Part shown: one piece after another, positions 1 through 62,260 of the stretch
Position numbering within the stretch: the stretch's first letter is position 1
Layout: every line of letters begins with the position of its first letter
NCBI RefSeq assembly: GCF_053078305.1
Contig: NZ_CP166879.1
Length of the DNA: 64,000 nucleotides
Reading direction: 5' to 3' (one strand)
Made by a program: the position numbers and the translations under genes
Notes under the pieces: model-generated
Seen by the model: only the letters and a program-made list of their open reading frames with translations
The model's database searches: none
Told to the model about the DNA's origin: nothing

Positions 1-509
1 CTGCGCTCCGACACTGCGTGGGTCGGTTGCTGCCTTTGTCCCGACAGCAGCTGTACCCACCACAGCGGCAGCCACGCACCCCTGTAACAATAAGGCTGAA
101 GTAAGGACAACAGCAGAATATAATAAACGCATATCTCCCCCGGAATTGTTTTGATTTTTACTTCATATTCCCGGAATTTATCGTACAAAAAGTTTACCTT
201 CAGTGAAACAAAACAAGCTACAGACTGTTATTATCCTCCGGCACAGCCGGAAACAGCGGATGCGTTACGTGGCATATCTGTATCTGTCAGACGGAAAGAT
301 TTATATCGGATATGGATGTACTGGAATTTAATATTGATCATGTTTTTTGCACGAAAACTTTGATACCGTCGTAAAGATTCTTTTTTTAACTATCTGGTTC
401 GCTGAACAGGATCTCCTTTTCGTTATACACAGGCTGAAAGGCACCGTGGAGCCCCCGGTGCCTTTTTCATAAAACAGAGAAAACACGTCTTTGAATATAC
501 CGTTTATGA

Positions 510-737
510 TTACCGTTCGCCCTTTTCTGACTCATCTTCAAGGATTTTCTGGATTTCTCTTTTGATCTCAAGTTTTTCAAGCTTCAGCCTGACCACTTTC
601 GTCGAATACGCTGAACCAAATTCATCTTCAATTCTTTTTATTTCGTGATCAAGTTTATTATGCTTTTCAAATAAAGAATCAAAGCGTTTATGATTTCCTT
701 TCAATGCTGAAATCAGTTCTCTGTACTCCGGGAACAT
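510..737 (-). CDS. YdcH-like DUF465 family small protein
   Basis: 75 aa; N-terminal MFPEYRELISALK and coiled-coil rich sequence closely resemble the YdcH/DUF465 family as I recall it. Confidence 0.65.
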   Translation of the reverse strand: MFPEYRELISALKGNHKRFDSLFEKHNKLDHEIKRIEDEFGSAYSTKVVRLKLEKLEIKREIQKILEDESEKGER

Positions 738-2250
738 TGTTTTTATCTCCTTTCATCAACACTGTAACAATACATATAAACATTAATATTATTAAAGATT
801 CTCACCATCAATATTCGCAGTGAATAATGCAGCATCTCATATTCACATCCTGCAGAGAAAACCCCTCCGGAGAGGGGTGAGTGTAGCGTAATGGAGTGTT
901 ATGTAGCATGGTGCCGGGTGCCTCCCGGTGAGTTCAGTATCAGCACCTGAACCCGCACAGATAAGGGATGTGACCAAACACCTACGATACTGATATGCCC
1001 CGCCGCTCAGGGGGATTCACCATGCAGTATTTTTTTAACAAATATCCCGTAAGACCGACAATAATCCACTGACTGAACTGTGAGGTATTTAACATTTACA
1101 GATGACTGACTGTGGTGATCAGAGGTATTACAGTCATCCCCCTGTGGCTGCAGTCCGACCATACCATAACCAGCCATACGTCTTACCCGGAAAGCAAATG
1201 GAGCTTTTTGCCATAAACAACACTCTCCGGCTTCAACAAATGGAGCAGAGAATATCTTCAGAAAGTAACAATCAGTTAAAAACAGATCTTTTTTGTATTC
1301 CGTAAATTTTTCAGAAGAGAAAAAGAATTAATTGTCGCCAACGCCTTCAACAGATCGCATCATCAACGAATGATAACAACCTGAAGGATACCGCGATGGA
1401 GTTGACTGTAGACCTGCTAAAAAACCTTAACAACATCAGACAAAATGCTACTATATATGTTCACGCATACCACTATACTGATGATGAAAAATGCGTTATG
1501 GTGCCACGGATATCTTTACCATCACTGAAATTAACTCCGTTGCAATCAGAAATAATTATTCTGACATCTTCTTAATGGAGTCAATTATATAAGGCACGAC
1601 GGGTATGTTCAGGGATATGAAGAAAAAAATGTGGCAACTTTCACAATACAGGAGGAGGGACACCATCGTTTCAAAGCAGACTTATCACAAAATGGGGAAA
1701 GTGATATAGCCAGCAATGTACTAAATCACTGGCTACATCGTATACATAAAACAGATATCATTGTTCTGTCTGTTGTTCTTACAGAATAAATCCTGTTACC
1801 TCCTGAATGTTACAAGGTTTTATATTTATCCTATGAGCATACGTACGTGAAAACTAATAAAAAAGGCACAACATGGCACATTTTTTACCGTGAAAATTCA
1901 GGCGCGGAAGTTTTGCTTGAAATACCATCATTTCGGGAATGTCTTTCAGTATCTAAAGAATTAATGACCCCATCAAATTACATGATATGCATAGAAAAAA
2001 ATGGCGAAAGAATAAAACGCCGGGACAGGGAAATCATCGCTGGCTCTAACAAATGGATTAACTGCCCACCTGATAACTTCGAAATATCAGGTGAGCTAAT
2101 AACCATTAACAGAATTATTAAAAAGTAACTCCGGATTCAGACAATGCATTAAGCAAGGCACTATAACAAGCAACGGGTTCATTTTTTGCGGGAGAATGCC
2201 TGTAAGATATCTCTGTGCCAGCACTACCCCTCTATTTTTATAAAACACCT

Positions 2251-2718
2251 TTAACAAACCTCGTCATTCTGATAAACAGAAGCATTCTCCTCATGATGTA
2301 ATTCACCACAGACAGCCCCTTTCCTGTTTAATTTTGCCTGATAGTGTAAATCTGGATATAACTTCACAATATATCGAAGAAACACGGAGTAAGATATATG
2401 ACTGAATAACGCCTCATGCACATTTTTCAGCAAACAACCGGAATTAACCATGAGAGCCATCTCAGAATGTTGTTTCTGCATAAATACAGCAACAGTACTG
2501 CGATTAAAAAGAGCATTTTCATGTAACTCACTTGCATCACGTCTCAGTGAAAATACAAAACCATTCTGTGAAAACGTCAGTTCCGGGTGTTTTTCCTTCA
2601 GTAATCTGTAAATATCTGGCAGTCTCATTCCATCCTTAATCCAGAGTGCAATGGCGTCACGCTCCTGGTTGATTAAGTTTTTTATCTTATTTTTTTCTGG
2701 TATAATCTTACCTTTCAT
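2251..2718 (-). CDS. hypothetical protein, divergent from mod
   Basis: ORF 2251..2751; internal ATG at 2718 has a GAGGGAGA Shine-Dalgarno 4-5 nt upstream; no recognisable family. Confidence 0.4.
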   Translation of the reverse strand: MKGKIIPEKNKIKNLINQERDAIALWIKDGMRLPDIYRLLKEKHPELTFSQNGFVFSLRRDASELHENALFNRSTVAVFMQKQHSEMALMVNSGCLLKNVHEALFSHISYSVFLRYIVKLYPDLHYQAKLNRKGAVCGELHHEENASVYQNDEVC

Positions 2719-2900
2719 ATTATCTCCCTCAGGAACAACAAAGAAGTTCACATATACAGAACCAGCTTTGTCTACATACCCGGAATTCAGTAAAGAAACA
2801 TAATCTATAAGACTTACTCACTTTAACAAAACAACATTCCTGGATAAAATAATATCCGATGAAATAATCTCCGCATAAATACATGAGGCTGCCATGACAC

Positions 2901-3005
2901 GCAACGCAACGCAACGCAACGCAACGCAACGCAACGCAACGCAACGCAACGCAACGCAACGCAACGCAACGCAACGCAACGCAACGCAACGCAACGCAAC
3001 GCAAC
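2901..3005. repeat. perfect pentanucleotide tract (GCAAC)x21
   Basis: 21 uninterrupted GCAAC units read directly at 2901-3005 (a degenerate unit precedes at 2896-2900); lies 64 bp upstream of the mod ATG. Confidence 0.95.
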
Positions 3006-3068
3006 AATATGCTCGCCTGAACTCTCTCCGTCAAGTACCTCTACCTCCGTGCTTTCTGGAGGTACTGT

Positions 3069-5105
3069 ATGAATATACGCAACAATCATCTACCGGGAAC
3101 AGAAACTCTTTTTTCTGAAACTGAAACTGCGAACAGTAAACAACTTGCTGTTTTGAAAACTAACTTTCCACAGTGTTTCGATAAAAACGGAGCTTTCATT
3201 CAGGAAAAGCTGCTTGAGATCATCAGAGCATCAAATGTTGAAATCTCTAAAGAGTCATACTGCTTAAACTGGCTTGGCAAATCCTATGCTCGCCTGCTGG
3301 CTAACCTACCACCAACGACATTGCTGTCAGAAGATAAAGACCATAACCGACGTGAAGAGAACAAGAACAGTCAAAATCTGTTAATCAAAGGGGATAACCT
3401 TGAGGTATTAAAGCATATGGTTAATGCTTATTCTGAAAAGGTTAAAATGATTTATATCGATCCGCCATATAACACGGGTTCTGATGGGTTCGCCTATAAT
3501 GATGATCGCAAATTTACACCAGAACAGCTTTCTGATCTGGCGGGTATCGATCTTGATGAGGCTAAACGTATACTTGAATTTACCACGAATGGTTCAAGCA
3601 GCCATAGCGCATGGTTAACGTTCATTTATCCTCGTTTATATATTGCTCGTGAGCTTCTACGTGAAGATGGTGTGATATTTATTTCGATTGACGAAAATGA
3701 ATTAAATCAACTTAAAACTATTTGTGATGAAATTTTTGGCGAAGCAAATTTCATAGAAAATATTGTATGGAATAAACGTATCCCTAAAAATGATAAGGGT
3801 ATTGGTAATATCCATGAGTACATCCTTGCTTATGCGAAGAATAACGAAATAAGTAAAGAATTTTTAATGCGGAAAGATGGTATTGATGATGTATATCAGT
3901 TTATTGAAAAGTTAAAAAAGGAAAAGGTGCCATTAGATAAAGCAGAGCAGCAACTCAAAAAATTCTACAGCTCCAACGGATATGATCGTGGAATTACTCT
4001 TTACAACGGTTTGAACGAGGATTATAGGCCATGGGGTAAAATTAATATGAGTTGGCCTAATGCAGATTCATTTGGACCCACGTATGAAGTATTGCACCCT
4101 TTGACTAATAACCCTGTCAAAATCCCAGACAGAGGCTGGCGTTGGAAAGAAGGCACTTTTAATCATATTGCAAAAAGAATAGATGGAAAGTATGCAGATA
4201 TCAAAAAACTACATGATGGTAGCGTTATTTGTGGTGGAATTTGGTTTGCCCGTACAGAAAAAACCCAACCCAGTTCGGTTAAATTTTTAGATGAAGTTGA
4301 AGAGTTTTTACTAAGATCAATTATTTCAACTAAAAGTGATGGTGGTGTTGAGGTTGAAAATCTTTTTGGTGGGAAAGGATATTTCTCCTACCCGAAGCCA
4401 ACAAGTTTAATAAAAACACTATTTGGTTCAGTAAGAACCGAAGATAAAGACATTTATCTTGACTTTTTTGCTGGCTCTGGAACTACAGCTCATGGTATTC
4501 TGGAGTTAAATATTGAAGACGGCAGGAAAAGAAACTTCATCTGTGTTCAATTAGATGAAGAAACAGATAAAAAGAAACAAGCCTATAAAGAAGGGTATAA
4601 ATCCATCTTCAATATAACAAAAGACAGAATTATTAAGGCAGGAAAAAAGCTGAAAAAAGATAATCCTAATTATAATGGAGATTTGGGATTTAAAATATTT
4701 GAAACAGTTCATGATTTTCGAGCGAAAGATGAGTCTGAACTTACGCTTTCTAATCTTAGTTTCTTTGACGATGCTGTATTGACACCAGAGCAGTATGACA
4801 CTCTATTGACGACATGGTGCGTGTATGATGGCAGCTTGCTAACAACACCAATTGAAGATATTGACCTTAATGGCTACAAAGCACACTTGTGCGATGGTCG
4901 GCTATATCTAATTGCGCCTAATTTCACAAGTGAGGCTTTGAAAGCTTTACTTCAAAAGCTGGATGCAGACAAAGACTTTGCCCCTAACAAAGTTGTATTT
5001 TATGGCAGCAACTTCGAAAGTGCGAAACAGATGGAACTCAATGAAGCACTAAAAAGTTATGCTAATAAAAAATCTATTGATTTAGATTTGGTGGTAAGGA
5101 ACTAA
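3069..5105 (+). CDS. mod: type III restriction-modification DNA methyltransferase (Mod), N6-adenine
   Basis: 678 aa; IYIDPPYNTG (DPPY catalytic motif) and FFAGSGTTAHG (AdoMet-binding FxGxG); GGAGG RBS 6 nt upstream of ATG 3069; res follows directly. Confidence 0.9.
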   Translation: MNIRNNHLPGTETLFSETETANSKQLAVLKTNFPQCFDKNGAFIQEKLLEIIRASNVEISKESYCLNWLGKSYARLLANLPPTTLLSEDKDHNRREENKNSQNLLIKGDNLEVLKHMVNAYSEKVKMIYIDPPYNTGSDGFAYNDDRKFTPEQLSDLAGIDLDEAKRILEFTTNGSSSHSAWLTFIYPRLYIARELLREDGVIFISIDENELNQLKTICDEIFGEANFIENIVWNKRIPKNDKGIGNIHEYILAYAKNNEISKEFLMRKDGIDDVYQFIEKLKKEKVPLDKAEQQLKKFYSSNGYDRGITLYNGLNEDYRPWGKINMSWPNADSFGPTYEVLHPLTNNPVKIPDRGWRWKEGTFNHIAKRIDGKYADIKKLHDGSVICGGIWFARTEKTQPSSVKFLDEVEEFLLRSIISTKSDGGVEVENLFGGKGYFSYPKPTSLIKTLFGSVRTEDKDIYLDFFAGSGTTAHGILELNIEDGRKRNFICVQLDEETDKKKQAYKEGYKSIFNITKDRIIKAGKKLKKDNPNYNGDLGFKIFETVHDFRAKDESELTLSNLSFFDDAVLTPEQYDTLLTTWCVYDGSLLTTPIEDIDLNGYKAHLCDGRLYLIAPNFTSEALKALLQKLDADKDFAPNKVVFYGSNFESAKQMELNEALKSYANKKSIDLDLVVRN

Positions 5106-5107
5106 TC

Positions 5108-8020
5108 ATGTCTAAAGGGTTCACATTCGAAAAAAATTTACCTCATCAAAAGGCTGGCGTTGATTCGGTAATGAATGTCTTTGTATCCGCCATACCTCAT
5201 CAGACGGATCATGTTGCAATTCGCCTGTTAGCTAATCCAGAACTGAATCTATCTGAACAACAATACTACAACAACATAAAAAATGTTCAGGAGTTCAATG
5301 GTATTGAGCACTCAAAAGATAATTACGATGCTAAAAGCAACGTAATTGATGTTTCTATGGAGACAGGTACAGGTAAAACTTATACTTACACCAAAACAAT
5401 TTTTGACCTGAACAAATCATTTGGTATTAACAAATTTATCATCATTGTTCCTACCCTATCGATCAAAGCCGGAACCGTTAACTTTTTAAAAAGCGATGCT
5501 ATAAAAGAACACTTTCGAGATGATTACGAGCGTGAACTAAAGACTTACGTTGTTGAAAGTCAGAAAAGTTCGGGTAAAAATACAAAATCGTATATGCCTC
5601 AAGCTATCCATGATTTTGTTGAAGCAAGTAATTTCAATAAGAAATATATACACATTCTTGTGATCAACTCAGGGATGATTAACTCTAAGTCTTTAACTGA
5701 CACTTATGATGTTGGCTTGCTTGATAATCAGTTTGATACCCCATTTTCTGCACTTAGTGCGATAAAACCATTCATTATCATTGATGAGCCTCATAAATTT
5801 CCTACTGGTAAAAAGACATGGGAACATATTCAAAAATTTAATGCCCAATATATCATCCGCTATGGCGCAACCTTTAGTGAAGGCTATAAGAACTTAGTTT
5901 ATCGTCTTACAGCCGTAGATGCCTTCAATGAAGATCTTGTTAAAGGTATTGATGCATACATTGAGGATATAGTTGGTGATGGTAATGCCAACCTCAAGTT
6001 GGTCAAATCTGACGGAAAAGAAGCTACATTTGAACTGAACGAAAATAATAATAAAAAAATTTTTAAGTTAGCCAAAGGTGAATCACTATCTAAGACGCAT
6101 AGTGCGATCCATGATTTAACTCTTGATGCTTTAAATAAGAATACAGCAGTGTTGAGTAATGGTATTGAGCTAAAAATTGGTAGTTCGATAAACCCCTATT
6201 CTTACGATCAGACACTTGCTGATAACATGATGCGTAAAGCTGTCAAAGAACACTTTAAGTTAGAAAAAGAGTATCTGACACAAAGGCCACGCATAAAACC
6301 TCTTACTCTTTTCTTCATTGATGACATTGAAGGCTATCGTGATGGTAATGATATTGCAGGAAGCCTGAAAACTAAGTTCGAAGAATACGTTTTGGCAGAA
6401 GCAAATGAACTGTTAAAAACAGAGAAAGATGAGTTTTACAGAAACTACCTTGAAAAAACTGTTAAGGATATATCTTCTGTTCATGGTGGTTATTTTTCAA
6501 AAGATAATAGTGATAAAGATGATAAAATTGAGCAGGAAATCAACGAAATCCTTCATGATAAAGAGCTTCTATTGTCTTTAGAAAATCCTCGCCGTTTCAT
6601 TTTCTCTAAATGGACGTTGCGTGAGGGATGGGATAACCCAAATGTCTTTCAGATTTGTAAGCTCCGTTCGAGCGGTAGCACCACATCTAAACTTCAGGAG
6701 GTAGGGCGTGGTTTACGTCTTCCAGTGAATGAATACATGTGCCGTGTGAAAAACCGCGATTTTACTCTCAACTATTATGTTGATTTTACGGAAAAAGATT
6801 TTGTTGATTCTCTTGTAAAAGAGGTTAATGATAGTTCTTTCAAAGAAACTGTTCCAGGTAAGTTTACTCAAGAACTTAAGGATAAAATCTTATCTCAGTA
6901 TCCTGAGCTTTCATCCAGAACACTCATGAATGAGATCTTTGATGCTGAAATTATTGATGATAATGAAAACTTCAAAGATTCCGATGCCTATAGCCGTTTA
7001 AAAGCAAAATATCCGGCTGCATTCCCTACCGGGGTGAAACCAACAAAAATAAAAAAAGCCACGGATGGAAAAAAGCGTACTAAAATGCGTATTGGTAAGT
7101 TCAGTGAGTTGAAAGAACTATGGGATTTGATCAATCAAAAAGTAGTAATTGAGTATAAAATAAATAGTGAAAATGAATTCTTATCCATTTTCAAATCATT
7201 CATGATTGAAGAAACAGATAGATTTACTAAATCAGGTGTTCATACTCGCATTGATAGAATTTATATTCATAATGATACGGCGATGTCGAAAAGTATCGTC
7301 AGTGACGATGATAACTTTGCTAAACTAAACACAATGAGCTATCGGGAATTTCTTGATAACTTATCACAAACTATTTTTGCTAAACACGATACCTTACATA
7401 AGGTTTTTTGTGATATAAAAGACACTATCAATATCACCGACTACCTGAACATTCAGACAATCAGAAAGATTAAATCTGGGTTTAGCAAGTATTTGTTGAA
7501 CAATTCATTTAACAAATTCAGCCTTGGATATAATGTAATTTCAGGCTCAATTCATCCTACAAAATTCACTAATGCAGACGGTAATCACCTGCATGAGGTA
7601 TTATCAGGTGATCTTGGAGTATTACAGGATAATACAAAAGCCCCCCTAGACTCTTATCTTTTTGAAGAAGTTTTTTATGATTCAGAGCTTGAAAGACTCA
7701 ATATAACAGACGGAGAGATCCACTCTGTTGCTGTTTTTACAAAGATACCGAAAAACTCAATTAAAATTCCAGTGGCAGGTGGATACACATATTCTCCTGA
7801 CTTTGCTTATGTTGTAAAAACAACAAAGGGTGACTACCTTAACTTTATTATTGAAACAAAAAATGTCGAAGGTAAAGAAAGTTTACGTAAAGAAGAACTG
7901 GATAAAATAAAGCATGCACAAAAACTTTTCGAACAGGTAAGTAAATCTGTAAAAGTAACTTTTATAACTCAATTCTCAGGTGACAGAATCCATGATCTGA
8001 TAAAAAATGTGATTCAGTAA
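5108..8020 (+). CDS. res: type III restriction enzyme Res subunit (SF2 helicase-nuclease)
   Basis: 970 aa; helicase motif I METGTGKTYT and motif II IIIDEPHKF; ATG 3 nt after the mod stop. Confidence 0.9.
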   Translation: MSKGFTFEKNLPHQKAGVDSVMNVFVSAIPHQTDHVAIRLLANPELNLSEQQYYNNIKNVQEFNGIEHSKDNYDAKSNVIDVSMETGTGKTYTYTKTIFDLNKSFGINKFIIIVPTLSIKAGTVNFLKSDAIKEHFRDDYERELKTYVVESQKSSGKNTKSYMPQAIHDFVEASNFNKKYIHILVINSGMINSKSLTDTYDVGLLDNQFDTPFSALSAIKPFIIIDEPHKFPTGKKTWEHIQKFNAQYIIRYGATFSEGYKNLVYRLTAVDAFNEDLVKGIDAYIEDIVGDGNANLKLVKSDGKEATFELNENNNKKIFKLAKGESLSKTHSAIHDLTLDALNKNTAVLSNGIELKIGSSINPYSYDQTLADNMMRKAVKEHFKLEKEYLTQRPRIKPLTLFFIDDIEGYRDGNDIAGSLKTKFEEYVLAEANELLKTEKDEFYRNYLEKTVKDISSVHGGYFSKDNSDKDDKIEQEINEILHDKELLLSLENPRRFIFSKWTLREGWDNPNVFQICKLRSSGSTTSKLQEVGRGLRLPVNEYMCRVKNRDFTLNYYVDFTEKDFVDSLVKEVNDSSFKETVPGKFTQELKDKILSQYPELSSRTLMNEIFDAEIIDDNENFKDSDAYSRLKAKYPAAFPTGVKPTKIKKATDGKKRTKMRIGKFSELKELWDLINQKVVIEYKINSENEFLSIFKSFMIEETDRFTKSGVHTRIDRIYIHNDTAMSKSIVSDDDNFAKLNTMSYREFLDNLSQTIFAKHDTLHKVFCDIKDTINITDYLNIQTIRKIKSGFSKYLLNNSFNKFSLGYNVISGSIHPTKFTNADGNHLHEVLSGDLGVLQDNTKAPLDSYLFEEVFYDSELERLNITDGEIHSVAVFTKIPKNSIKIPVAGGYTYSPDFAYVVKTTKGDYLNFIIETKNVEGKESLRKEELDKIKHAQKLFEQVSKSVKVTFITQFSGDRIHDLIKNVIQ

Positions 8021-8103
8021 ACACATGCATGATAACAAAGTGGAGGTGGTTTCACCCCCACTTTATAATTATACACACATCACAAAATTCGCAGGTGAGT
8101 TCA

Positions 8104-8802
8104 ATGACAACATGTTCTGAACTGAAGGAAAGAGCCCGTTTTGATGGTATGCATGATGCTTCTCTTGAAGTGGCATGGCAATTACTTATGACGAAAAGTG
8201 TATCCACTATTACTACTGAGATAATATCCGGTGCAGACATGTCCAATTTTTCAGTGATTATCAGGGAACGATATAAACATGCAATAGCAAAATCTCTTCT
8301 CAATCATTTATCTCCCGATGTTGTTTCTGACATCATCGGTTTATCTCATGATGAGTTCAATCAACAATATAAAGGCAATTTAACCAGACAACAACACCTG
8401 AGAGATATTGCTGTAAGTTTAACAGATAAAGGATTCACAGAATCATCTGCATGTAATATTGTCAACCTGGACCTAATGTTACTTCCTGAAGAAAACTGGT
8501 TACTTTATAAAGAAAATTACAATACAGGATATCAGGATGCACTTTATAAATCCGTATGGAGAATGCACACATACGAATATCCAACAGCAACCATCAGTTG
8601 TTTGACAAAATTAAATAATGAAAATATATTAAATATTATTACAGGTATAGAAGTAATACTCCTCGCAGCAAAAAAACCTGCATGTAAAGACAGAACAGAT
8701 AAAATTGCTGAAATGCTGAAAATACCATTCTCTGTCGTCAAAGAATTTATTGATGAACAGGCTTTATTGAACAAATCAAACATTCAGGGAACTGGCAGTT
8801 GA
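8104..8802 (+). CDS. hypothetical protein downstream of res
   Basis: ORF 8029..8802; in-frame ATG at 8104; no recognisable motifs; AT-rich like the R-M genes. Confidence 0.35.
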   Translation: MTTCSELKERARFDGMHDASLEVAWQLLMTKSVSTITTEIISGADMSNFSVIIRERYKHAIAKSLLNHLSPDVVSDIIGLSHDEFNQQYKGNLTRQQHLRDIAVSLTDKGFTESSACNIVNLDLMLLPEENWLLYKENYNTGYQDALYKSVWRMHTYEYPTATISCLTKLNNENILNIITGIEVILLAAKKPACKDRTDKIAEMLKIPFSVVKEFIDEQALLNKSNIQGTGS

Positions 8803-8848
8803 ACAAAACGCCAGTCCGAAGACTGGCGCAGTGATAAAACATTCTGCA

Positions 8849-9535
8849 TCATGCCACATTCTGCTCCTGAAGATGACGCAGACGATGGTCCCAGTTTCCC
8901 AGGTAATGCCCGGGCGTCAGCAGTACGCGGCGTCGCTCATTACAGAGCGAGTTACCAATCACCACTTCTCCGGCCACACCACACAACGACAGTTGTATAT
9001 ACGCCATGCCGGCTGCCAGCGGGTCAATATCCGTTGCCGACACCCACATCCTGCGATATGCCGGATACCCCGAACGGTTCAGGGTGTCAGCCATTGCCAG
9101 AATCATACTGCCGGCACCACAGGCAGGTTCACTGAGCGTGATAAAGGGTTTGTTCTCAAACAACGCCTTCACATCTCCCATCTGCATCTGTGCCATCATG
9201 CTGGCAACACTCCAGGGCGTGAAAAACTGACTCCGGTATTTATCCCCCAGTTCCAGTTGCATGAACACACTCCCCAGAAAATCACAGACTCCCTGCTCCA
9301 GTCCCTCAATGACATGAGCAAGCAAATGCGCAATGTGGATAACATCCTGCTTTTCATAACCACTGACGATCCGCAGATACTTCTGTTCCCGGGCCTCACT
9401 GAACTGAAGCCGGTTTTCCAAGGCAATCACACTACAGCTGACAAAGTCTTCAAACACCTTATGACGTTTGTGATAACAGGCTGTCCGGTTAAACAACGAA
9501 ATGAACTCCTTCTGATGGTCAGTCATGGTGGCCAT
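8849..9535 (-). CDS. N6-adenine methyltransferase-like protein (possible orphan or antirestriction methylase)
   Basis: 228 aa; SQFFTPW and EPACGAGS resemble amino-MTase motifs X and I; no clear NPPY/F catalytic motif seen. Confidence 0.45.
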   Translation of the reverse strand: MATMTDHQKEFISLFNRTACYHKRHKVFEDFVSCSVIALENRLQFSEAREQKYLRIVSGYEKQDVIHIAHLLAHVIEGLEQGVCDFLGSVFMQLELGDKYRSQFFTPWSVASMMAQMQMGDVKALFENKPFITLSEPACGAGSMILAMADTLNRSGYPAYRRMWVSATDIDPLAAGMAYIQLSLCGVAGEVVIGNSLCNERRRVLLTPGHYLGNWDHRLRHLQEQNVA

Positions 9536-9572
9536 GTTTTCTCCGTAAAAACAGGGAACACATGGCCCGGAC

Positions 9573-9590
9573 AGGGGAACAGGTGTTCCC
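9573..9590. promoter_or_regulatory. GC-rich palindrome GGGGAACAGGTGTTCCCC upstream of 8849..9535
   Basis: perfect 18-bp palindrome about 40 bp upstream of the gene start on the minus strand. Confidence 0.4.
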
Positions 9591-9646
9591 CTTCGGGTTG
9601 AAATGTTGATAAAACGGGCATCACGGACATGATACCCGGAGGTTAA

Positions 9647-10594
9647 TTACTGGGCTGAGACCAGAGGAACCGGTAAAGGTGCGGCTTTCGTCTGTTCTTC
9701 AGCGCACTCCTCCACCAGGTACAGTCGGGGCTGTGGAAGTGTTTCCCTGCCCGGCCATTCGGCCTGCAGATCACTGTCCGTATGCTCTCCGCCATCGTAA
9801 CAGTTGTAACCCTGTATACCGTGTACCGGCTCGCTGTACCAGTGTCGGACCTCGCAGTCAAACACCTTCGAGATCTCACCAACCAGTTCGCCTGAAGGCG
9901 GATACCAGGGCGTGTCGATCAGCAGCACCAGACTGCTCATCTCATCACGCGCATGGCGAACATTATTTCCTGACGGCCACTCCACACCGTATATCCGGCT
10001 GTAAAGGCTGGTCGTTGTGGAAATACCCTGCAGCAGTCCACCTGAACCATTCAGCTCTGTAGCCAGACGGGAGGGTATGACCATCAGCATGTCACAGGGC
10101 TGCGCCTGTTCCGGGTAATCCGACAACCAGCTCCAGCAGGCTTCTGCATCAATGTGTTCACTCAGCCCGGCCAGACCAAACCAGTCAGAATACTGACGGC
10201 TCATCAGCGTGGTGATGATCTCCCTGGCATTATCCGGCAGATTACCCCAGCGAACAGCGCCGATACATGACTGGTGATAAAGACGCTCAATGGTCTTTAT
10301 CGTTTCACCATCCAGAACGGCATTTTTTACCAGCAACCCCAGCCACTGCTCAAACGCCTGGTTAGCCGGAGATGACAACCCCGTTCCGTGACGAACCAGC
10401 GCCGGATATGGCGGATACTGCGTCGTCCGTGTGGGTTTTACCAGCCCTGCACAACCGGCCAGAAACAGCTGTATACTCTGCTGTATGGCATGACGGTAGC
10501 GCGGGGTCTCACGCCCTTCAATCCACTGTGTAAGTACATCAAGACAGACTGATTTACCGGTAATTTCAAAACGGTTTTTGCACCATTCAGACAT
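9647..10594 (-). CDS. hypothetical protein
   Basis: 315-aa ORF; no family recognised. Confidence 0.5.
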   Translation of the reverse strand: MSEWCKNRFEITGKSVCLDVLTQWIEGRETPRYRHAIQQSIQLFLAGCAGLVKPTRTTQYPPYPALVRHGTGLSSPANQAFEQWLGLLVKNAVLDGETIKTIERLYHQSCIGAVRWGNLPDNAREIITTLMSRQYSDWFGLAGLSEHIDAEACWSWLSDYPEQAQPCDMLMVIPSRLATELNGSGGLLQGISTTTSLYSRIYGVEWPSGNNVRHARDEMSSLVLLIDTPWYPPSGELVGEISKVFDCEVRHWYSEPVHGIQGYNCYDGGEHTDSDLQAEWPGRETLPQPRLYLVEECAEEQTKAAPLPVPLVSAQ

Positions 10595-15450: not shown

Positions 15451-15706
15451 CCGTTAATAAAGGGCGCAGTTATAAAGAAACCTTCATCGTCATGACTGAC
15501 GATATCTGCTCTCAAAGGTGGGCAGATTTACCACCACCAGAAACATCCTGGCTGCACATCCCCTTTCAGGTTACGGGGGTGTTGATCACCCGAAGGCGTT
15601 CCTCTCAGATCAACGGAACATTGGTGCCCACCGAAGCGGGATGTGGTCACCCGAAGGCGCTCCTCTCAGACCACTTATGGAGCATTGGTGGTCGCCGAAG
15701 CGACAT
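15451..15706. repeat. direct repeat copy 1 (~255 bp) flanking the recombinase cassette
   Basis: near-identical to 17784..18037 by eye; contains tandem ~63-bp hairpin units. Confidence 0.85.
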
Positions 15707-15770
15707 GTAGCCACCCGAAGGCGCTCCTCTCAGGCCACTTGTGGAGCATTGGTGGTCGCCGGAGCGACAT
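15581..15770. repeat. tandem array of three ~63-bp structured units
   Basis: units begin at about 15581, 15643 and 15707; each opens with a 6-7 bp stem (TTGATC/GATCAA; TGGTC/GACCA) around the conserved loop ACCCGAAGGCG(C/T)TCCTCTCA. Confidence 0.8.
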
Positions 15771-17171: not shown

Positions 17172-17783
17172 ATTTCTCCCTGACGACACGGTTAAACGTT
17201 GCGATCCTTCGGGTAGTGACTGCCTGTGCGCCAGGGTAGCGCAGATTGTTTAGGTATTGAGGGGTAACAAATCGGTGTTGCACACCGACTGCAGCATTTG
17301 CTGTACCTGTCTCCAGGTCGCCCCCGACACCACCTCTAATAAGTGGTATCGCCGATTCGGCATCTCACTACATAAAACTCCTTAAAAAAACAATTGATTC
17401 TGCAAAAAACCATTTATGGACGTTATTCACAAAATCGTCCGTAAATTTGCAGAAGAGGTTGAAAAAACACTCTCACGCCGGGTCACTTCTTCAAATGTTA
17501 AAAAACATCACGTGAAACGGCAGTTCGTGCGGGTTCGTTAAGCAGACGCGCGTGCGTCACTTTGTCATCGTGACACGCTGACGAAAGTGACGCCGCGCAG
17601 CTTCAGACGCCAGATACACGCGTAAGCGACCAAATTTCAAATGGTCTTATACAGCGCGCACAGTCGCAGGAAGTGCTGGCAAACAAATGAAAAGAATAAA
17701 AGAAGTCAATACCGCCATTACGCAGTAAGAACATTCCGGCATCACCGGATGGATAAGGATCACACAACCACTGCTGTGTATTG

Positions 17784-18037
17784 CCCGTAATAAAGGGCGC
17801 GGTTAAAAGAAACCTTCATCGTCATGACTGACGATATCTGCTCTCAAAGGTGGGCAGATTTACCACCACCAGAAACATCCTGGCTGCACATCCCCTTTCA
17901 GGTTACGGGGGTGTTGATCACCCGAAGGCGTTCCTCTCAGATCAACGGAACATTGGTGCCCACCGAAGCGGGATGTGGTCACCCGAAGGCGCTCCTCTCA
18001 GACCACTTATGGAGCATTGGTGGTCGCCGAAACGACA
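17784..18037. repeat. direct repeat copy 2 (~255 bp) with two tandem ~63-bp units (17913-18037)
   Basis: near-identical to 15451..15706. Confidence 0.85.
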
Positions 18038-20643: not shown

Positions 20644-21601
20644 GTCTTCATCCTCATCAGCAGCTCTTCAGTGGATAACATCCACAGTTACACCTGCATT
20701 TACGCGCAACAAAAACACCAGATGAAGATTTTATTCATTCAGCTCCGCTAAAAATTAATCTTGCTGTGGAATATCGGGAAAACAGGAAGTTACGTTAAAA
20801 GCCGAAGGAAAAACTCACAATCCCTTCTTCAATCAGCCTCTGAAAATCGGCTTTTCAGCATGTCTTCCCCCATTGTTCGTATACCCTGTTCGATGGATTA
20901 TTATTGATCCATATGATCGCTTCACGTAAACACGATTCTGGCTCCACACCATTCTGGACGCGATTGTTACCAAAAAAGACAACCATCACAAGACGTCACA
21001 GACGGTGCGTGCGCTTACTCCTGTATATCTGGCGCAACAGAATCTACCAGTGTAAACTCTCTATGCTTTTGCGCAGAAGCAGTGGGCCTGGGTTCGCTTA
21101 TGTCCTGCATCTACAAGCGAATGACTGACCAGAGACTCCCATATCTGGTCAGTCGCCCATTTTTATTTTCCCTATACACTCAGACTACAATAGCCGTAAC
21201 AAACAGCATACCCCCAGTCATAGTGGCCCCTTTATCTTCTTATGGCTTGTCTGTGGTACTGGAGATAGAGCAACTGTGGGAGTACTGTTATGGCCCCCGG
21301 TAAGAAAAACTCTTGCTTAATGTACAGCAGAACTGTTCCCAGAAAGAAGCCTGTGCATATTTTCATAGAAGGAGATCACCCATAACGGCGTTTTTCACGG
21401 TAATACACGCCAGGTAAAGAATGCTGGATTATCAATCAAAGCTCCGCACAGGAAGCGCTTATGCCGTAGAGCGCCCTCTGGAGAAAAGTGCTACTTCTTG
21501 TCGATTCAGACTAGTTCAGGAAATTATACGAAAATATTACCTGAATGAGCTAAATGTTATTTACCTTCCTTTCTGTTCATTGTAAATTTTTTCTTGCTAA
21601 C

Positions 21602-21620
21602 GCAAATCATTATCATTACG
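21602..21620. promoter_or_regulatory. Fur-box-like sequence upstream of TonB-dependent receptor
   Basis: GCAAATCATTATCATTACG contains AATCATTATC, matching half of the Fur consensus GATAATGATAATCATTATC; about 20 bp upstream of the ATG. Confidence 0.55.
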
Positions 21621-21640
21621 ATTTTAGAAAAGGGAAATTT

Positions 21641-23689
21641 ATGAAGAACAAATATATCATTGCTCCGGGCATTGCCGTGATATGTTCTGCAGTCATATCA
21701 TCAGGTTATGCCAGTTCTGATAAAAAAGAAGATACGCTTGTTGTTACTGCCTCCGGCTTCACTCAGCAACTCAGAAATGCACCGGCCAGTGTTTCAGTCA
21801 TTACTTCAGAGCAACTGCAAAAAAAACCGGTTTCAGACCTGGTCGATGCGGTAAAAGATGTTGAAGGGATTAGTATCACCGGTGGGAATGAAAAACCGGA
21901 TATCAGTATACGTGGGTTAAGTGGCGATTATACATTGATTCTGGTCGATGGACGACGTCAGAGTGGTCGGGAATCCAGACCAAACGGCAGCGGCGGTTTT
22001 GAAGCCGGATTTATCCCTCCTGTGGAAGCAATTGAGCGTATTGAAGTTATACGTGGCCCTATGTCTTCCCTGTATGGTTCCGATGCTATCGGAGGAGTTA
22101 TTAATATCATAACCAAACCTGTTAATAACCAGACATGGGATGGCGTACTTGGGCTTGGGGGAATTATTCAGGAACATGGGAAATTTGGTAACTCAACCAC
22201 GAATGACTTCTACCTGTCAGGCCCATTGGTTAAGGATAAACTTGGTCTTCAGTTATATGGAGGAATGAACTATCGCAAGGAAGATAGTATCTCTCAGGGA
22301 ACACCAGCAAAAGATAATAAGAATATAACGGCAACACTCCAGTTTACTCCGACTGAAAGCCAGAAGTTTGTTTTTGAATACGGAAAAAATAACCAGGAAC
22401 ATACATTAACACCTGGTGATTCTCTTGATGCCTGGACTATGCGGGGAAATCTTAAACAACCAAACAGTAAAAGAGAAACACATAACTCACGTAGTCACTG
22501 GGTAGCAGCATGGAATGCCCAGGGCGAAATACTGCATCCTGAAATTGCTGTTTATCAGGAGAAAGTTATTCGTGAGGTTAAATCTGGTAAAAAAGATAAA
22601 TATAATCATTGGGATCTTAATTACGAGTCAAGAAAACCGGAAATAACCAACACGATCATAGATGCAAAAGTGACGGCATTTCTGCCGGAAAATGTGCTGA
22701 CCATCGGAGGTCAATTTCAGCATGCAGAACTCCGTGATGACTCAGCCACAGGTAAAAAAACGACAGAAACACAGTCTGTTTCAGTTAAACAGAAAGCTGT
22801 TTTTATAGAAAATGAATATGCTGCAACGGATTCTCTCGCCCTGACTGGAGGGCTGCGCCTCGATAACCATGAAATCTATGGCAGTTACTGGAATCCAAGA
22901 TTGTATGCTGTTTATAACCTGACCGATAATCTCACTCTCAAAGGAGGGATCGCAAAAGCATTTCGGGCCCCTTCGATTCGTGAGGTCAGTCCTGGATTTG
23001 GAACACTGACGCAGGGTGGTGCCTCTATTATGTATGGAAACAGGGACCTGAAACCGGAGACCAGTGTAACCGAAGAGATCGGTATTATTTATAATAATGA
23101 CAGTGGTTTTTCAGCAAGCGCGACTCTGTTTAATACAGATTTTAAAAATAAGCTGACCAGTTACGATATAGGCACAAAAGATCCAGTCACTGGGCTAAAC
23201 ACTTTTATTTATGATAATGTGGGTGAGGCAAATATCAGAGGTGTGGAGCTTGCAACTCAGATTCCTGTGTATGATAAATGGCGTGTATCTGCAAACTATA
23301 CATTCACTGACTCCCGTCGAGAAAGCGATGACGAAAGTCTCAATGGCAAGTCGCTGAAAGGGGAACCTCTGGAAAGAACTCCCAGACATGCAGCCAATGC
23401 AAAACTGGAATGGGATTACACTCAGGATATTACATTTTATTCATCTCTGAATTATACAGGAAAACAAATCTGGGCAGCACAAAGAAATGGTGCCAAGGTT
23501 CCCCGTGTTCGTAATGGATTCACTTCTATGGATATTGGTATGAATTACCAGTTCCTGCCAGGCACGCTGATTAATTTTGCCGTACTTAACGTCACAGACA
23601 GAAAGAGCGAAGATATCGATACCATTGATGGTAACTGGCAGGTCGATGAAGGACGTCGTTACTGGGCTAATGTAAGAATATCCTTCTGA
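21641..23689 (+). CDS. ireA: TonB-dependent outer-membrane siderophore receptor (IreA-like)
   Basis: 682 aa from ATG 21641; signal peptide, TonB-box-like DTLVVTA, plug motif IEVIRGPMSSLYGSDAIGGVINIITK, terminal aromatic ...RISF; size and sequence match my recollection of IreA (Iha not excluded). Confidence 0.75.
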   Translation: MKNKYIIAPGIAVICSAVISSGYASSDKKEDTLVVTASGFTQQLRNAPASVSVITSEQLQKKPVSDLVDAVKDVEGISITGGNEKPDISIRGLSGDYTLILVDGRRQSGRESRPNGSGGFEAGFIPPVEAIERIEVIRGPMSSLYGSDAIGGVINIITKPVNNQTWDGVLGLGGIIQEHGKFGNSTTNDFYLSGPLVKDKLGLQLYGGMNYRKEDSISQGTPAKDNKNITATLQFTPTESQKFVFEYGKNNQEHTLTPGDSLDAWTMRGNLKQPNSKRETHNSRSHWVAAWNAQGEILHPEIAVYQEKVIREVKSGKKDKYNHWDLNYESRKPEITNTIIDAKVTAFLPENVLTIGGQFQHAELRDDSATGKKTTETQSVSVKQKAVFIENEYAATDSLALTGGLRLDNHEIYGSYWNPRLYAVYNLTDNLTLKGGIAKAFRAPSIREVSPGFGTLTQGGASIMYGNRDLKPETSVTEEIGIIYNNDSGFSASATLFNTDFKNKLTSYDIGTKDPVTGLNTFIYDNVGEANIRGVELATQIPVYDKWRVSANYTFTDSRRESDDESLNGKSLKGEPLERTPRHAANAKLEWDYTQDITFYSSLNYTGKQIWAAQRNGAKVPRVRNGFTSMDIGMNYQFLPGTLINFAVLNVTDRKSEDIDTIDGNWQVDEGRRYWANVRISF

Positions 23690-24362
23690 GAGAATATAGA
23701 TAACCTGAGGCCGTGCGCCTCAGGTACCAGTATAGTAATCAGTAACGTCAGCTTCCAGGTTGTAATGCTTTTAATTTTGATAAAAATAAACTTAATAAAT
23801 TACATTTGTTAAATATTGATAATTTTAATTTGGTTTTATTACTCCAGTTATACTCACACTCTATCTTTACACAATTCATCACCATTACACCTCCATAGCC
23901 TGTTGATTTAAAAGATTTAATTTCCTGTGAAACAATCAGGCCTGTATGAACCTGATTATACCACAGAATCTTTTAAGTTATTTAAATTTAACTCTCGGGC
24001 TTTTCTGTCAGTAAAATCAGAAAAATTGCAGGATTTCGTTTTTTTTGCTGCGAAGTGAAATGTATCTCATTTTTACTGCCTTCGCCAGTGCGTCAGGCAA
24101 TGGCAGGTAGTGTACCTGCATTCTGCTGTAACGCGTAATGTCGGGTAGTTTACTTAAACTTAATATGTTTTATGTTTGCATTATTATAAATCACTTTATT
24201 GCCTTTTGTCTGCTTTTTAATGGTTCCCGTTTTGTTCACTTCTGGCTTTATAAAAAATGGATGCTGAAGAAATGAAGGTAGTCCACCTTACATAATATTC
24301 ATGCATGATTTTTATGCTATTCCGACTGAGTGGAAGAAAATAAAGGAGAAAAGAGGGTATAT

Positions 24363-27300
24363 ATGAACCTCAGAAAAAAACATATCTGTATAGCCATATC
24401 ACTTGTTCTTAATCCGGCATCCATATCACAGGTCAGTGCTCAGGCAGATACAAATAAGTTAACTGTTGAAGTTGATGAAACCAGCCTTGGCCATGATGTC
24501 TATGGCGATGACTGGAAGAGCATTGAAATAGGTACAACGAAATTTACAGCAAAAGATGAATCAAAGGGAATTAATTTCGACCATAAATCACCGGTGGCTG
24601 AAGGACGTAACTCTATCGCGATTGGTACCAGTGCAGAGGCTGGAGGTGACATTAGCACGAAGGAAGGTTTGTACACAGGCGAGTCTATTGCGATAGGAGC
24701 GAAAACGAAAGCAACTAAAGAACAGTCAATTGCAATAGGTGGCGATACCAAAGCTACCGGATGGGGGGCTATTGTTATTGGTGGGGATGATTTAACTCCT
24801 TTGCATGGTAAGACTTATGGTCGGGAAAAAATAGAGAATGGCTATCTTGCATCGGAAGCGCAGGGGGATGGCAGTATTGCGCTGGGCAGCAGAACTTTTG
24901 CTAAAGGCGAATTGTCAGTATCGCTTGGTTCGGTGAGTTCTGCTGAGGGGATGGCCTCGAATGCAATTGGAGCCACGGCGGAAGCTAAAGGGGATATGGC
25001 GACTGCGGTTGGTTTTAATGCGCTGGCTAATGCCGGTAATGCTCTGGCCGTTGGTAGTCAGTCCTCTGCAAATAAAAACGATGCTCTTGCTGTTGGTTCA
25101 GAGGCAAATGCCGCTCAGAATGAAACGGTTGCCCTGGGGCATGGAGCAACCGTTACTGTCGCAAAGGGGAACGTGTCCATCGGCGCTGACTCCAGGGATA
25201 AGCAGGCACAAAAAGTAACAGAGGCTAAGGTCAGAACTAAAAGAGGCGCGGAAGTCACATATAGTGGCTTTGCCGGAAATAACGCAGCATCAGTAGTATC
25301 TGTTGGTGATGCGGGTAAAGAGCGTCAGATTGTTAACGTGGGGGCGGGTGCGATTTCTGACACAAGTACAGATGCCATTAACGGTAGTCAGTTATATGCG
25401 ATAGCGAAGACACTGAAAGATGACCTTGATGCCATTAATCCGACGTGGACGCTAAAGGATGATAAGGGAGGTTCTGCGACTATTAATGGTGGGAAGGATA
25501 ATAAGAATGGTAACACTTTAACTGTTAAAGGTGATGGAGATATTGCAGTTACTGTTAATGATAAAGGAATGACGATTGACGGAACAACGCTGAAAAATGA
25601 AATAAAAAATGATGCCATCAAAATTAAAGGTGGAGATGGTAAGACGCTGACGAAGAGTCTTGGTGACAATGTCGAAATCACTGGCAAAGGCCCAATAAAA
25701 ACCCAGGTGGCTGGAGATAAACTGGAGATTTCAGCAGAGACAGCTTCGTTGCCTGTAAATGGTGGTAACGGGAAGATTACAGTAAACAATGGTGATGGCG
25801 ATAAACTTGTTACTGCGAAAAACATTGCTGATGCCATAAACCAGTCTGGCTGGAAAATTAAAGCGGATAAAGATACCGGTGGTGTTATCGAGGGAAATGG
25901 TCAGGGAACAGAAACACTGATAAAACCCGGTGATATGGTTACGCTGAAAGCCGGTAAAAATCTCAGCGTGAAACAAAGTGGTGGTGATTTTACATTCTCT
26001 GTTATTGATACTCCGTCATTCAGCAGTGTTCAGCTGAATGGAAAAGGAAATAACGGAAGTGTAACGCTCTCATCCGAAGGTAATAAGCTGACATTGTCAG
26101 GCGGTAATGGTGCCGGACAAAATGGTGTTGTTATCAGTGGTGTGGCAAGTGGACTGGAAGGTAAGGAACTTTCGACGTTAACGAATACTGATAAAGAGAT
26201 GAAAAATGCCGCCAGTGTTGCAGACCTGAAAACGGCAATTGATGGTGTGTCCTCCAGTATGCAGGGTGCAGGTTTCGCACTGAAAGACTCTGATGATAAG
26301 GAAGTGAAACAGTCTCTTGGGCAGGCGATTAAAGTATCCGGGGACAGCAATATCACCACCACAGCCATCACCAATGGGGATAAGGGGTTAAAAATATCCC
26401 TGAATAATGACCTGAGCGTTGGGAGCAATAATACTCCCGGCAGCATCAAAGTTAACGGGGCTGATGGTAAGGAGGCTGTGAGTCTGAATGGTCAGGATGG
26501 CACGATTAAACTGACATCCTCGCCTGCTGCGGGTGGAAAGTCTGCGTCAGCAACCATTGCTGTTAATGCAGGCAAAGGTGGATTAACAGATGCTGCCGGT
26601 ACCACGAAGACACGTCTGACTTATACCCCGGATGGAAAATCACCGGCAGAAGAGCTGGCGACCATGAATGACGGTCTTTCTTTTGAGGGTGATGACGGAA
26701 AGGTTATTCATAAAAAACTGAATGAAAAACTGACCATCAAAGGTGGTGCAGAGAAGAATGCTGAAGTGACTGACGGCAATATCCGGGTTGATAATGATAA
26801 TGGCGGGCTTCTGGTGAGGATGACCAGAAACCTCCGTGATTTGGCCAGCGCGGTTTTTGGTACAGGTGGGCAGATAACAACAGTTAATGATAAAGGCATC
26901 ACAATCACAACACCTGCTGCGGGCGGTGGTCAGGGGAATACGGTTTCCCTTACCGGCTCCGGCCTGAATAACGGTGGAAATCAGATAACCAGTGTGGCCA
27001 GTGGTCTGAACGGCACTGCGCTTGCTGACGCCGGTGGAGATGTTCTGAATAATGCGGCCAATATCGGTGACCTGAAAAATGCTCTCCGTGACAGCAGTGC
27101 GGCACTGGTGAATACCGGCTTTGGTCTGCAGGCGGATGACGGAAGCAAGGTGAACACGTCTCTCGGGAAGCATATCACGGTTGGTGGTGACGGGCAGAAT
27201 ATCAGCACGACTGTTCAGAACGGGAGCCTGACGGTCAGACTCGCTGATAACATTCGCCTGGGAGATGACGGCAGTGTTTCTGTCGGCGGAACCCGGATGG

Positions 27301-28694: not shown

Positions 28695-28718
28695 CAGGGA
28701 AAAGCAAGGAGAAATGTA

Positions 28719-29498
28719 ATGTTATTTAGTCGAATGATGATGACGGGTGTGCTGTCCCTGATGCTTGCAGGATGTGGAAATCTGAGTCATGTCACGGATG
28801 AAGGAACGACGGAAGAAGTGGTATGGCCTTCTCCGGAGAAGGTGATGTTTAATCATGACGGAACACAGAAAGGTTCGTGGCCACTGCCAGAAAAGTTACG
28901 TCAGATAAAGGCGGGTATGAATAAGGACCAGATTTATCAGCTGGCGGGGAGACCACACTTTGCTGAAGGGATGTCTGGTGTAAGGGAATGGGATTACCTG
29001 TTCAACTTTACCGGACCGGAGGGGGATTATACCTGCCAGTACAAGATACTGTTTGACCGGAACATGGATGCCCGCTCTTTCTACTGGAAGCCGGAAAACT
29101 GTCTGCCGGAGGCAGAGACAGCAGAATACAGGGAGTCAGTCCCCGGTGATATATTATTTGATTTTGATTCATGGACTCTGACAGAGAGGGGGCGTGATGC
29201 GCTTTCCCGTGTGGCAGAGAAGTTTCAGGCGGGTCATGTTGTCGGGGTGAAGATAGAAGGATTTACGGACCATCTTGGCGGGCAGGCGTATAACCGGCTC
29301 CTGTCAGAGAAACGGGCGGAATCAGTCAGGGGGTGGTTTATTGCCCGGGGATTCAGGGCTGAAAGGATACATGCAACGGGCCGTGGATATGATGCACCAG
29401 TGGTGTTCTGCCCGGATGTGGAGGGCGAAGCACTGAAGGAATGTCTGCGCCCCAACCGCAGGGTTGAAATAACCGGGGAAACATCAGTGACTGATTAA
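28719..29498 (+). CDS. OmpA-domain lipoprotein, TpgA-like partner of the adhesin
   Basis: 259 aa; lipobox LAGCG; C-terminal OmpA-like peptidoglycan-binding region (GFTDHLG ... NRRVEI); AGGAG RBS, 24 nt after the adhesin stop. Confidence 0.7.
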   Translation: MLFSRMMMTGVLSLMLAGCGNLSHVTDEGTTEEVVWPSPEKVMFNHDGTQKGSWPLPEKLRQIKAGMNKDQIYQLAGRPHFAEGMSGVREWDYLFNFTGPEGDYTCQYKILFDRNMDARSFYWKPENCLPEAETAEYRESVPGDILFDFDSWTLTERGRDALSRVAEKFQAGHVVGVKIEGFTDHLGGQAYNRLLSEKRAESVRGWFIARGFRAERIHATGRGYDAPVVFCPDVEGEALKECLRPNRRVEITGETSVTD

Positions 29499-58525: not shown

Positions 58526-58535
58526 TTCCCCTTAC

Positions 58536-59902: not shown

Positions 59903-60037
59903 GATGCGACTCCGTCAGACAACTGGTATCTGACAGCGTGCGCAAAGGCAAAGGGACAATCAGCAATAAATTCAAAACCGGATGATAAAAATTAAGCCTC
60001 TTCCTCTGAATAACGCACACTCTGCATCTGAATCAAA

Positions 60038-60757: not shown

Positions 60758-60861
60758 CGGATATCCGGTAAATATGCTGATTTATTAAAGAGACAGACAT
60801 GCCCCGTATATAAAATTCCGTGTCACCGGGTGCTGAAAAAAACTGCACCGGCGGCGCTCTT

Positions 60862-62259: not shown

Positions 62260-62260
62260 A

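Follow-up and report, generated by a model that had tools for sequence, protein, structure and literature searches.

Restriction-modification (R-M) systems of type III whose methyltransferase gene mod is switched by a simple sequence repeat (SSR), the phasevarions, are described from Haemophilus, Neisseria, Helicobacter, Moraxella, Streptococcus suis and Shiga-toxigenic Escherichia coli (STEC); in almost all described phase-variable mod genes the repeat lies within the mod open reading frame (ORF), and the number of units decides whether the repeat peptide is in frame with Mod (PMC5909438). The STEC example, an in-ORF CAGCGAC tract from a 2018 REBASE survey of type III mod genes, is reported there as the first methyltransferase with phase variation in pathogenic E. 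coli, and a GCAAC unit goes unmentioned in that survey (PMC5909438). In Bibersteinia trehalosi, a CGCAA repeat is found 43 bp upstream of the gene for the type III methyltransferase M.Btr192II (PLoS One 2016, PMC4996451), and in Streptococcus gallolyticus the GCAGA repeats of the pil1 leader peptide gene are known from experiment to control a transcription terminator (PMC3894217). Here we analyze a stretch of 64,000 nt from contig NZ_CP166879.1 of assembly GCF_053078305.1 (the window), in which a perfect (GCAAC)21 tract lies inside a short leader ORF upstream of an intact type III mod-res operon of E. coli. We propose, with moderate confidence, that this leader ORF is phase-variable and gates both mod and res by translational coupling.

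The locus shares with the phasevarions a type III Mod, a 5' SSR and a tract length that varies between strains, and the expected consequence, stochastic ON/OFF methylation, is alike. Unlike theirs, its repeat is not within the mod ORF: the last repeat base (3005) is followed by 63 nt before the mod ATG (3069), and the tract belongs to a separate upstream ORF whose frame shifts never alter the frame of Mod. Furthermore, this locus has an intact res gene, whereas phasevarions often have a decayed one. With M.Btr192II the locus has in common the GCAAC/CGCAA unit, the location tens of nucleotides upstream of a type III mod gene and the strain-variable copy number. With pil1 it shares a pentanucleotide repeat in a short leader peptide gene, in which the length or frame of the leader sets how far ribosomes travel and, by the model proposed here for E. 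coli as in pil1, how strongly the operon behind it is expressed, although the regulated genes and the phylum differ. The mod-res order, the 2-nt gap between the two genes, the PF18273 domain and the 970-aa Res are shared with EcoP1I/EcoP15I-type operons; the classical systems are without a repeat tract, and relatives of the LF82 type or on 40-kb linear plasmids carry an ordinary upstream gene.

The (GCAAC)21 tract is the sole long SSR of the window, the remaining ones being an A10 at 50824 and a (TCA)5 at 33423, and it is not a chance feature. At 2899-3005, Tandem Repeats Finder (TRF) gives a period of 5 and 21.4 copies that match at 100% and are free of indels, in agreement with direct reading of 21 perfect units (Table 1), so that the array recognized upstream of a type III mod gene in the original prediction, which was made from the letters alone, is confirmed. 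Nor is the tract an assembly artefact, because an identical stretch is present in E. coli assembly GCA_000736735.1 and other lengths are found in complete long-read E. coli chromosomes. The ATG at 2894 opens an ORF through the tract that ends at 3118 with 21 units, again as predicted. This ORF has its own Shine-Dalgarno (SD) sequence and start codon, both conserved in the E. coli variants described below, and equivalent leader ORFs carry the PGAP annotation "hypothetical protein" in several E. coli genomes. Since the unit is 5 nt long, each unit gained or lost shifts the leader frame past the tract. The leader was rebuilt in silico with 19 to 23 units, and the outcome matches exactly the three phase-dependent stops of the original prediction. 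When n mod 3 = 1 (19 or 22 units) the leader ends at TGA 3018-3020, leaving just 48 nt untranslated ahead of mod; when n mod 3 = 2 (20 or 23 units) it ends at TGA 3070-3072, the stop overlapping the mod start as ATGA; and when n mod 3 = 0 (21 units, the state of the window) it ends at TGA 3116-3118, 47 nt inside mod. Two minus-strand ORFs spanning the tract (2729-3034 and 2823-3089) were rejected as by-products of the repeat.

Comparison of related genomes, proposed with the original prediction as a check, reveals a tract that is hypervariable between strains. Where the encoded Mod is 100% identical, the contigs have tracts of 21, 15 and 14 units, the counts of 14 and 15 coming from short-read assemblies and being possibly imprecise. 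In 12 complete E. coli chromosomes the 5' module is about 88% identical to that of the window (hereafter L001-type loci), the Mod protein is 96% identical and the layout is unchanged, while the tracts range from 7 to 47 units (25, 19, 13, 47, 30, 33, 25, 29, 34, 37, 37 and 7). Long-read genomes represent n mod 3 = 1 with CP033635 (25 units), CP027340 (19), CP182371 (13) and CP027323 (37), n mod 3 = 2 with CP126926 (47) and CP172185 (29), and n mod 3 = 0 with CP172127 (30) and CP158308 (33). Several of the L001-type loci have mutual flank identities of 100% and differ only by multiples of 5 bp. Intact E. coli loci populate all three phases, and the 7-unit locus has an IS1 inserted in mod. We infer that slippage also proceeds at a high rate within a single clone.

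More than 12 short-read E. coli assemblies and Logan contigs start 55-93 nt upstream of mod, their breaks falling in or at the tract. Complete genomes therefore understate how common the locus is, and the tract length is usually lost in short reads. In GCA_026420665.1, which encodes an identical Mod, the 5' junction is altered about 80-120 nt upstream of mod: ATGACACGCTACTAA, a truncated leader, is followed by GCAACGCA-ATGAAAC-(GCAAC)14, and the second ATG is without an evident SD. Recombination between the two leader types of E. coli could explain this junction, as could an artefact of short-read assembly. A scan of metagenomes with the 3' junction returned a single E. coli-like contig, uninformative because its tract is collapsed to 3 units.

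The two E. coli variants show which parts of the 5' module are kept. The DNA upstream of the leader is a divergent hypothetical gene in the window and an IS3 remnant in the L001-type loci; because the divergent gene is not conserved in other E. coli loci, the tract belongs with mod. The 166-aa product of the divergent ORF has no match in Pfam, NCBIfam or PADLOC. Though the DNA farther upstream is unrelated, ATGAGGCT ahead of the leader ATG is kept in the L001-type loci. The spacers between tract and mod are set apart by a single 6-nt indel, and each of the three frame outcomes survives it, the stops lying at -51 (window) or -45 (L001-type), +1 and +47 relative to the mod ATG. The counterpart of TGA 3018-3020 in the L001-type loci is TAA, and the ATGA overlap at n mod 3 = 2 is found in both variants.

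Folding of the spacer predicts a hairpin whose 3' arm holds the mod SD, and which the leader crosses in two of the three simulated phases. The hairpin has a minimum free energy of -12.7 kcal/mol (z -2.6) in the window and -14.9 kcal/mol (z -3.2) in its L001-type counterpart when segments of 41-46 nt are folded. Its arms, ACCTCC and GGAGGT, are invariant between the E. coli variants, and a G-to-A change between them converts a G·U into an A-U pair. For the mod SD, pairing of at least 99% is predicted, both in the free leader RNA and with a ribosome terminating at 3018-3020. With a ribosome modelled at 3055 it is still predicted to be paired, with alternative partners; this constraint is crude and is not relied upon. 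The hairpin is not an intrinsic terminator because no T-run (U-run in the RNA) follows it; GUAUGAAUAU stands there instead, and a terminator scan of 3006-3068 found no intrinsic terminator. A consensus scan found a promoter-like sequence upstream of the leader and no plus-strand promoter between the tract and mod; the tract is therefore probably transcribed and not a promoter spacer. No known RNA family of Rfam matches at the leader.

We propose that the tract acts as a slippage-prone SSR in a leader ORF that is translated from the mod-res mRNA, in a type III R-M system borne by an integrative and conjugative element (ICE) of E. coli. Slipped-strand mispairing would alter n, the leader would always be translated, and the frame after the tract would set where the ribosome stops. 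When n mod 3 = 1, ribosomes would stop about 13 nt short of the hairpin (3034-3066), the SD would stay sequestered and mod would be poorly translated (OFF). When n mod 3 = 2, the leader ribosome would melt the hairpin, terminate on the ATGA and reinitiate efficiently (ON). When n mod 3 = 0, as in the window with its 21 units, the hairpin would be melted as well and the ribosome would run 47 nt into mod out of frame, for which an ON or intermediate state is predicted. The res gene should fall with mod in the OFF state, as it begins 2 nt after the mod stop and would depend on mod translation as in EcoP1, where the 2-bp gap between mod and res has been read as terminator-to-initiator ribosome shuffling (PMC3874151). 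We infer both that the leader is translated and that translation of mod depends on it.

The methylomes of B. trehalosi bear on this proposal. Strain 192, with 15 copies of the repeat, methylates ACATC, while strains 188 (17 copies) and 189 (14 copies) do not, and in these three strains mod and 1 kb of upstream DNA are identical apart from the SSR (PMC4996451). Neither a leader ORF nor a mechanism was put forward by its authors, who state that the observation 'warrants further study' (PMC4996451). In the deposited genomes an SD-ATG-tract leader ORF is also present. In strain 192, the 46-aa leader passes the mod SD and ATG and stops 12 nt inside mod, whereas the leaders of strains 188 and 189 end 22 nt short of the mod ATG, as translational coupling predicts. 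Strain 190 (CP006956), whose Mod has a different target recognition domain, behaves otherwise: with its 15 perfect units the leader is in read-through phase, but RGTAAT, the motif of this strain, is reported as unmethylated in the native host. The B. trehalosi methylomes thus fit the coupling model in three of four strains, and strain 190 is an unexplained counterexample. There are differences from the E. coli locus as well. One of the three frames reaches mod in B. trehalosi and two do so in E. coli, no clear SD hairpin is predicted in B. trehalosi, and the host is a member of the Pasteurellaceae. The tract flanks of B. trehalosi have no recognizable similarity to those of the window, the B. 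trehalosi and Rodentibacter caecimuris Mods are about 30% identical to the E. coli Mod, and the Mod allele of strain 190 has 43% identity over the N-terminal 250 aa. By these comparisons, the relationship appears analogous, with at most the cassette idea shared, and is not a demonstrable orthology.

Similar leaders occur in other bacteria. In a scan for (GCAAC)5 with one genome per species, which did not reach the Enterobacterales, mod homologues adjoin GCAAC tracts in at least three genomes among the matches listed, those of Acinetobacter calcoaceticus, B. trehalosi and R. caecimuris. B. trehalosi and R. caecimuris have the same arrangement of SD, ATG, 2-3 codons, (GCAAC)n, 41-68 nt, SD and mod ATG, with a stop in the mod frame and exactly one frame crossing the mod SD and ATG to end at +10. 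In Spirabiliibacterium falconis a GCAAC leader precedes a type II methyltransferase gene with an ATGA overlap. A mod-frame stop between tract and ATG is found in every leader-type lineage examined, and in each lineage one of the frames terminates +1 to +10 relative to the start codon. To evaluate the latter feature, the coding sequence was held fixed and the spacers were shuffled, with a frame ending at -3 to +15 from the start codon as the target; such a frame arises in 29-56% of the shuffles per lineage, giving a joint probability of about 0.03 for four independent lineages. At the level of sequence, the leader-ORF reading is strengthened by the SD and ATG abutting the tract, by the conserved stop outcomes and by the occurrence of the layout before unrelated Pasteurellaceae mod genes.

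Several further observations concern these relatives. Downstream of the GCAAC-leader mod of R. caecimuris, res (7709-10325 of the extracted locus) is split into ORFs of 664 and 220 aa; it is probably frameshifted, as in many phasevarions in which restriction has been lost. The closest homologues of the Bibersteinia-type Mod, in Pasteurella multocida and Avibacterium paragallinarum, lie in a different operon (SNF2-DUF4391-mod-res), and ORF calls, the only evidence used here, show no separate leader ORF in the 65-nt gap before mod. GCAAC leaders with SD, ATG, 1-3 codons and tract also precede the gene of a 363-aa protein in Brachyspira catarrhinii and genes for proteins with a signal peptide, found in a rumen bacterium and in a Spirochaetales metagenome-assembled genome. 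The genes behind these leaders are separate and have SDs of their own.

Besides strain 190, a number of points weigh against coupling. The mod gene owns a strong SD, GGAGG at 6-nt spacing from its ATG, and the hairpin that should mask it is just moderately stable: its z score falls to between -1.1 and -1.3 when segments of 78-85 nt are folded, and is then indistinguishable from that of shuffled sequences. The Pasteurellaceae spacers are without significant SD-masking structure. A 34-unit tract is kept in an E. coli locus with a frameshifted mod, two of the three counts from loci with identical Mod are those taken from short-read assemblies, and the frame-architecture statistic (p ~0.03) is weak, supportive and not strong. 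For E. coli, the support for coupling consists of sequence and predicted structure, and mod would switch accordingly. The strong SD, the folding energy of just -12.7 to -14.9 kcal/mol, the tract persisting beside a frameshifted mod and the modest statistic would all suit a tract that is hypermutable but neutral, with mod constitutively translated from its own SD and the upstream ORF arising as a by-product of the repeat. We regard such neutrality as unlikely, since long perfect tracts are maintained in many strains, tracts have been recruited independently before at least three unrelated mod lineages and another methyltransferase gene, and copy number correlates with methylation in the published data from three B. 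trehalosi strains whose loci are otherwise identical. The locus disrupted by IS1, moreover, carries only 7 units.

Repeat tracts that modulate promoters upstream of genes are well known, with nadA, hif and fim3 as examples. The GCAAC tract might likewise act on transcription, its length altering promoter spacing or phasing, or the structure of the DNA or RNA, in which case mod mRNA would follow n and not n mod 3. Strains 190 and 192 of B. trehalosi share a leader phase and differ in methylation, so phase alone is insufficient, as this explanation would have it. It is nevertheless a little less probable than neutrality. The promoter-like hexamers lie upstream of the leader start, with none on the plus strand between tract and mod, which would place the tract within the transcript; the range of 7-47 units (35-235 bp) is hard to square with a spacing-sensitive promoter; and neither the conserved SD and ATG next to the tract of four lineages nor the frame-preserving indel would be explained.

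Leader-peptide attenuation or polarity, in which the leader frame would control transcription read-through via a terminator or Rho and not initiation at mod, has its experimental precedent in pil1 (PMC3894217). A comparable layout is seen in a Clostridia genome from the scan, where a terminator-like hairpin and its T-run come after a GCAAC leader, and if mod were untranslated, Rho polarity would naturally follow as a secondary effect. Whereas pil1 acts through a transcription terminator, the E. coli locus has an SD hairpin without a U-run and an ATGA overlap, pointing to translational coupling. As the hairpin contains the SD, no terminator lies between tract and mod, and the early-stop phase leaves so short an untranslated stretch before mod, we consider attenuation in E. 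coli improbable. The classical arrangement, in which ATG 2894 would be the true mod start and the right n would fuse the repeat peptide in frame to Mod, is that of most known phase-variable mod genes and of Acinetobacter calcoaceticus, where (GCAAC)18 lies within the mod ORF, but it can be given almost no credence here because TGA 3018-3020 stands in the mod frame between tract and ATG, as do TAA in the L001-type loci and stops in Bibersteinia and Rodentibacter, and because homology of Mod to tract-less relatives begins only at about residue 12.

These tract-less relatives also show what can stand in the place of the leader. The LF82-type E. coli Mod is 97% identical to that of the window, and the mod genes of 40-kb linear Klebsiella and Enterobacter plasmids have about 85% DNA identity over the 5' 600 nt; neither has a repeat tract, and both align to the window only from about mod codon 10. 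Their mod genes are preceded by a conserved ORF of 94-120 aa, at 2616-2978 of the extracted LF82 locus and 2694-2978 of that of a 45-kb linear Klebsiella plasmid, that ends 11-17 nt before mod, for which no Pfam match was found in LF82 and which is possibly an alternative controller of this R-M system. Because a near-identical Mod occurs with an ordinary upstream gene instead, the leader cassette can be swapped as a 5' module, probably a regulatory one. Phage and plasmid collections gave no match to the leader or the spacer.

Full-text literature searches for the GCAAC unit returned the B. trehalosi note only. Those for a phase-variable methyltransferase controlled by an upstream ORF or by translational coupling returned nothing on mod, and among leader-peptide SSR switches they gave pil1 alone. 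In E. coli, phase variation driven by SSRs is rare, and for methyltransferases the in-ORF CAGCGAC mod of STEC is so far the only case reported (PMC5909438); the remark accompanying the original prediction, that pentanucleotide control from the leader of an enterobacterial mod would be unusual, therefore stands. We raise tentatively, as something possible and not yet probable, that GCAAC leader ORFs form a portable and largely unrecognized class of translational phase-variation cassettes before unrelated methyltransferase (and other) genes in Enterobacteriaceae, Pasteurellaceae, spirochaetes and Firmicutes, with the E. coli locus as a three-state enterobacterial switch (OFF, coupled ON and read-through intermediate) of a functional ICE-borne type III R-M system. 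Surveys restricted to repeats within the mod ORF, such as that of 2018, would miss this class and undercount phase-variable methyltransferases. The coupling model offers a concrete and testable mechanism for the unexplained methylome observation in B. trehalosi. A stochastic switch on the complete restriction system of a conjugative island would be relevant to bet-hedging in phage resistance and to the permeability to horizontal transfer, and epigenetic heterogeneity is possible in avian-pathogenic and Shiga-toxigenic lineages, where related loci occur. For genomics, short-read assemblies break at the tract, and the switch state would be readable as n mod 3 in long-read genomes.

The genes downstream of the leader encode a complete type III system. 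Mod matches PADLOC MTase_III at 775 bits over residues 13-678, and an identical Mod protein carries Pfam PF01555 and PF18273, the latter an EcoP15I-type C-terminal domain. Res matches NCBIfam NF012027 at 1073 bits (cutoff 564) and PADLOC REase_III at 1610 bits, and its ATG is placed 2 nt past the mod stop. The exact Mod and Res proteins are present in NCBI E. coli assemblies, and 69-8105 of the window is identical to an 8,037-nt stretch of GCA_000736735.1.

Table 1. Positions of the leader, its signals and the mod-res operon in the window.
Feature	Position	Strand	Basis
Promoter-like TTAACA-16 nt-TAAAAT, consensus match only	2823-2850	+	Consensus scan, 10/12 matches
Shine-Dalgarno GAGG of the leader ORF, 5 nt ahead of ATG 2894	2885-2888	+	Direct reading
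Leader ORF, 74 aa at n=21, MT(RNATQ)n plus frame-dependent tail	2894-3118	+	ORF list, repeat-number simulation
(GCAAC)21, perfect pentanucleotide tract, hypermutable element	2901-3005	+	TRF, direct reading in GCAAC register
TGA ending the leader if n mod 3 = 1; in mod frame; 13 nt before the hairpin	3018-3020	+	Simulation
Predicted hairpin, 3' arm holding the mod SD GGAGG (3058-3062)	3034-3066	+	Folding
mod, type III DNA methyltransferase, 678 aa, intact	3069-5105	+	PADLOC MTase_III, Pfam
TGA ending the leader if n mod 3 = 2; overlaps the mod start as ATGA, a termination-reinitiation layout	3070-3072	+	Simulation
res, type III restriction endonuclease, 970 aa, intact	5108-8020	+	NCBIfam, PADLOC

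The G+C content of mod-res is 35% against 46% for the window. By its gene content, the locus sits in what appears to be an ICE-like island of E. coli, with genes for a PFL_4706-type TraC, TIGR03755, ArdC-N and DUF1281 proteins, IS110, IreA and a trimeric autotransporter. Regions 21554-29498, 52716-53768 and 57101-63956 hold island cargo and machinery, the cargo including an IreA-family siderophore receptor and a trimeric autotransporter adhesin of 1454 aa, whose OmpA partner is TpgA-like. Four Rfam matches above the gathering score, all on the minus strand (852-1054, 15476-15641, 17214-17371 and 17872-18037), comprise an STnc100 small RNA, two STAXI RNAs and an EFASI RNA; all but the STnc100 match lie downstream of the R-M system. 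A 64-bp tandem repeat at 15587-15770 (2.9 copies, 86% identity) overlaps one of the STAXI matches. Another tandem repeat, of 87 bp (60903-61185, 3.3 copies, 91% identity), is located in the conjugation-gene region within the overlapping ORFs 60820-61287 (+) and 60862-61323 (-); as its unit is a multiple of 3 nt, it could encode a repeat-containing protein. The A10 homopolymer (50824-50833) lies in the intergenic region from which a 262-aa ORF (-) and a gene for a LysR-family regulator (+) diverge.

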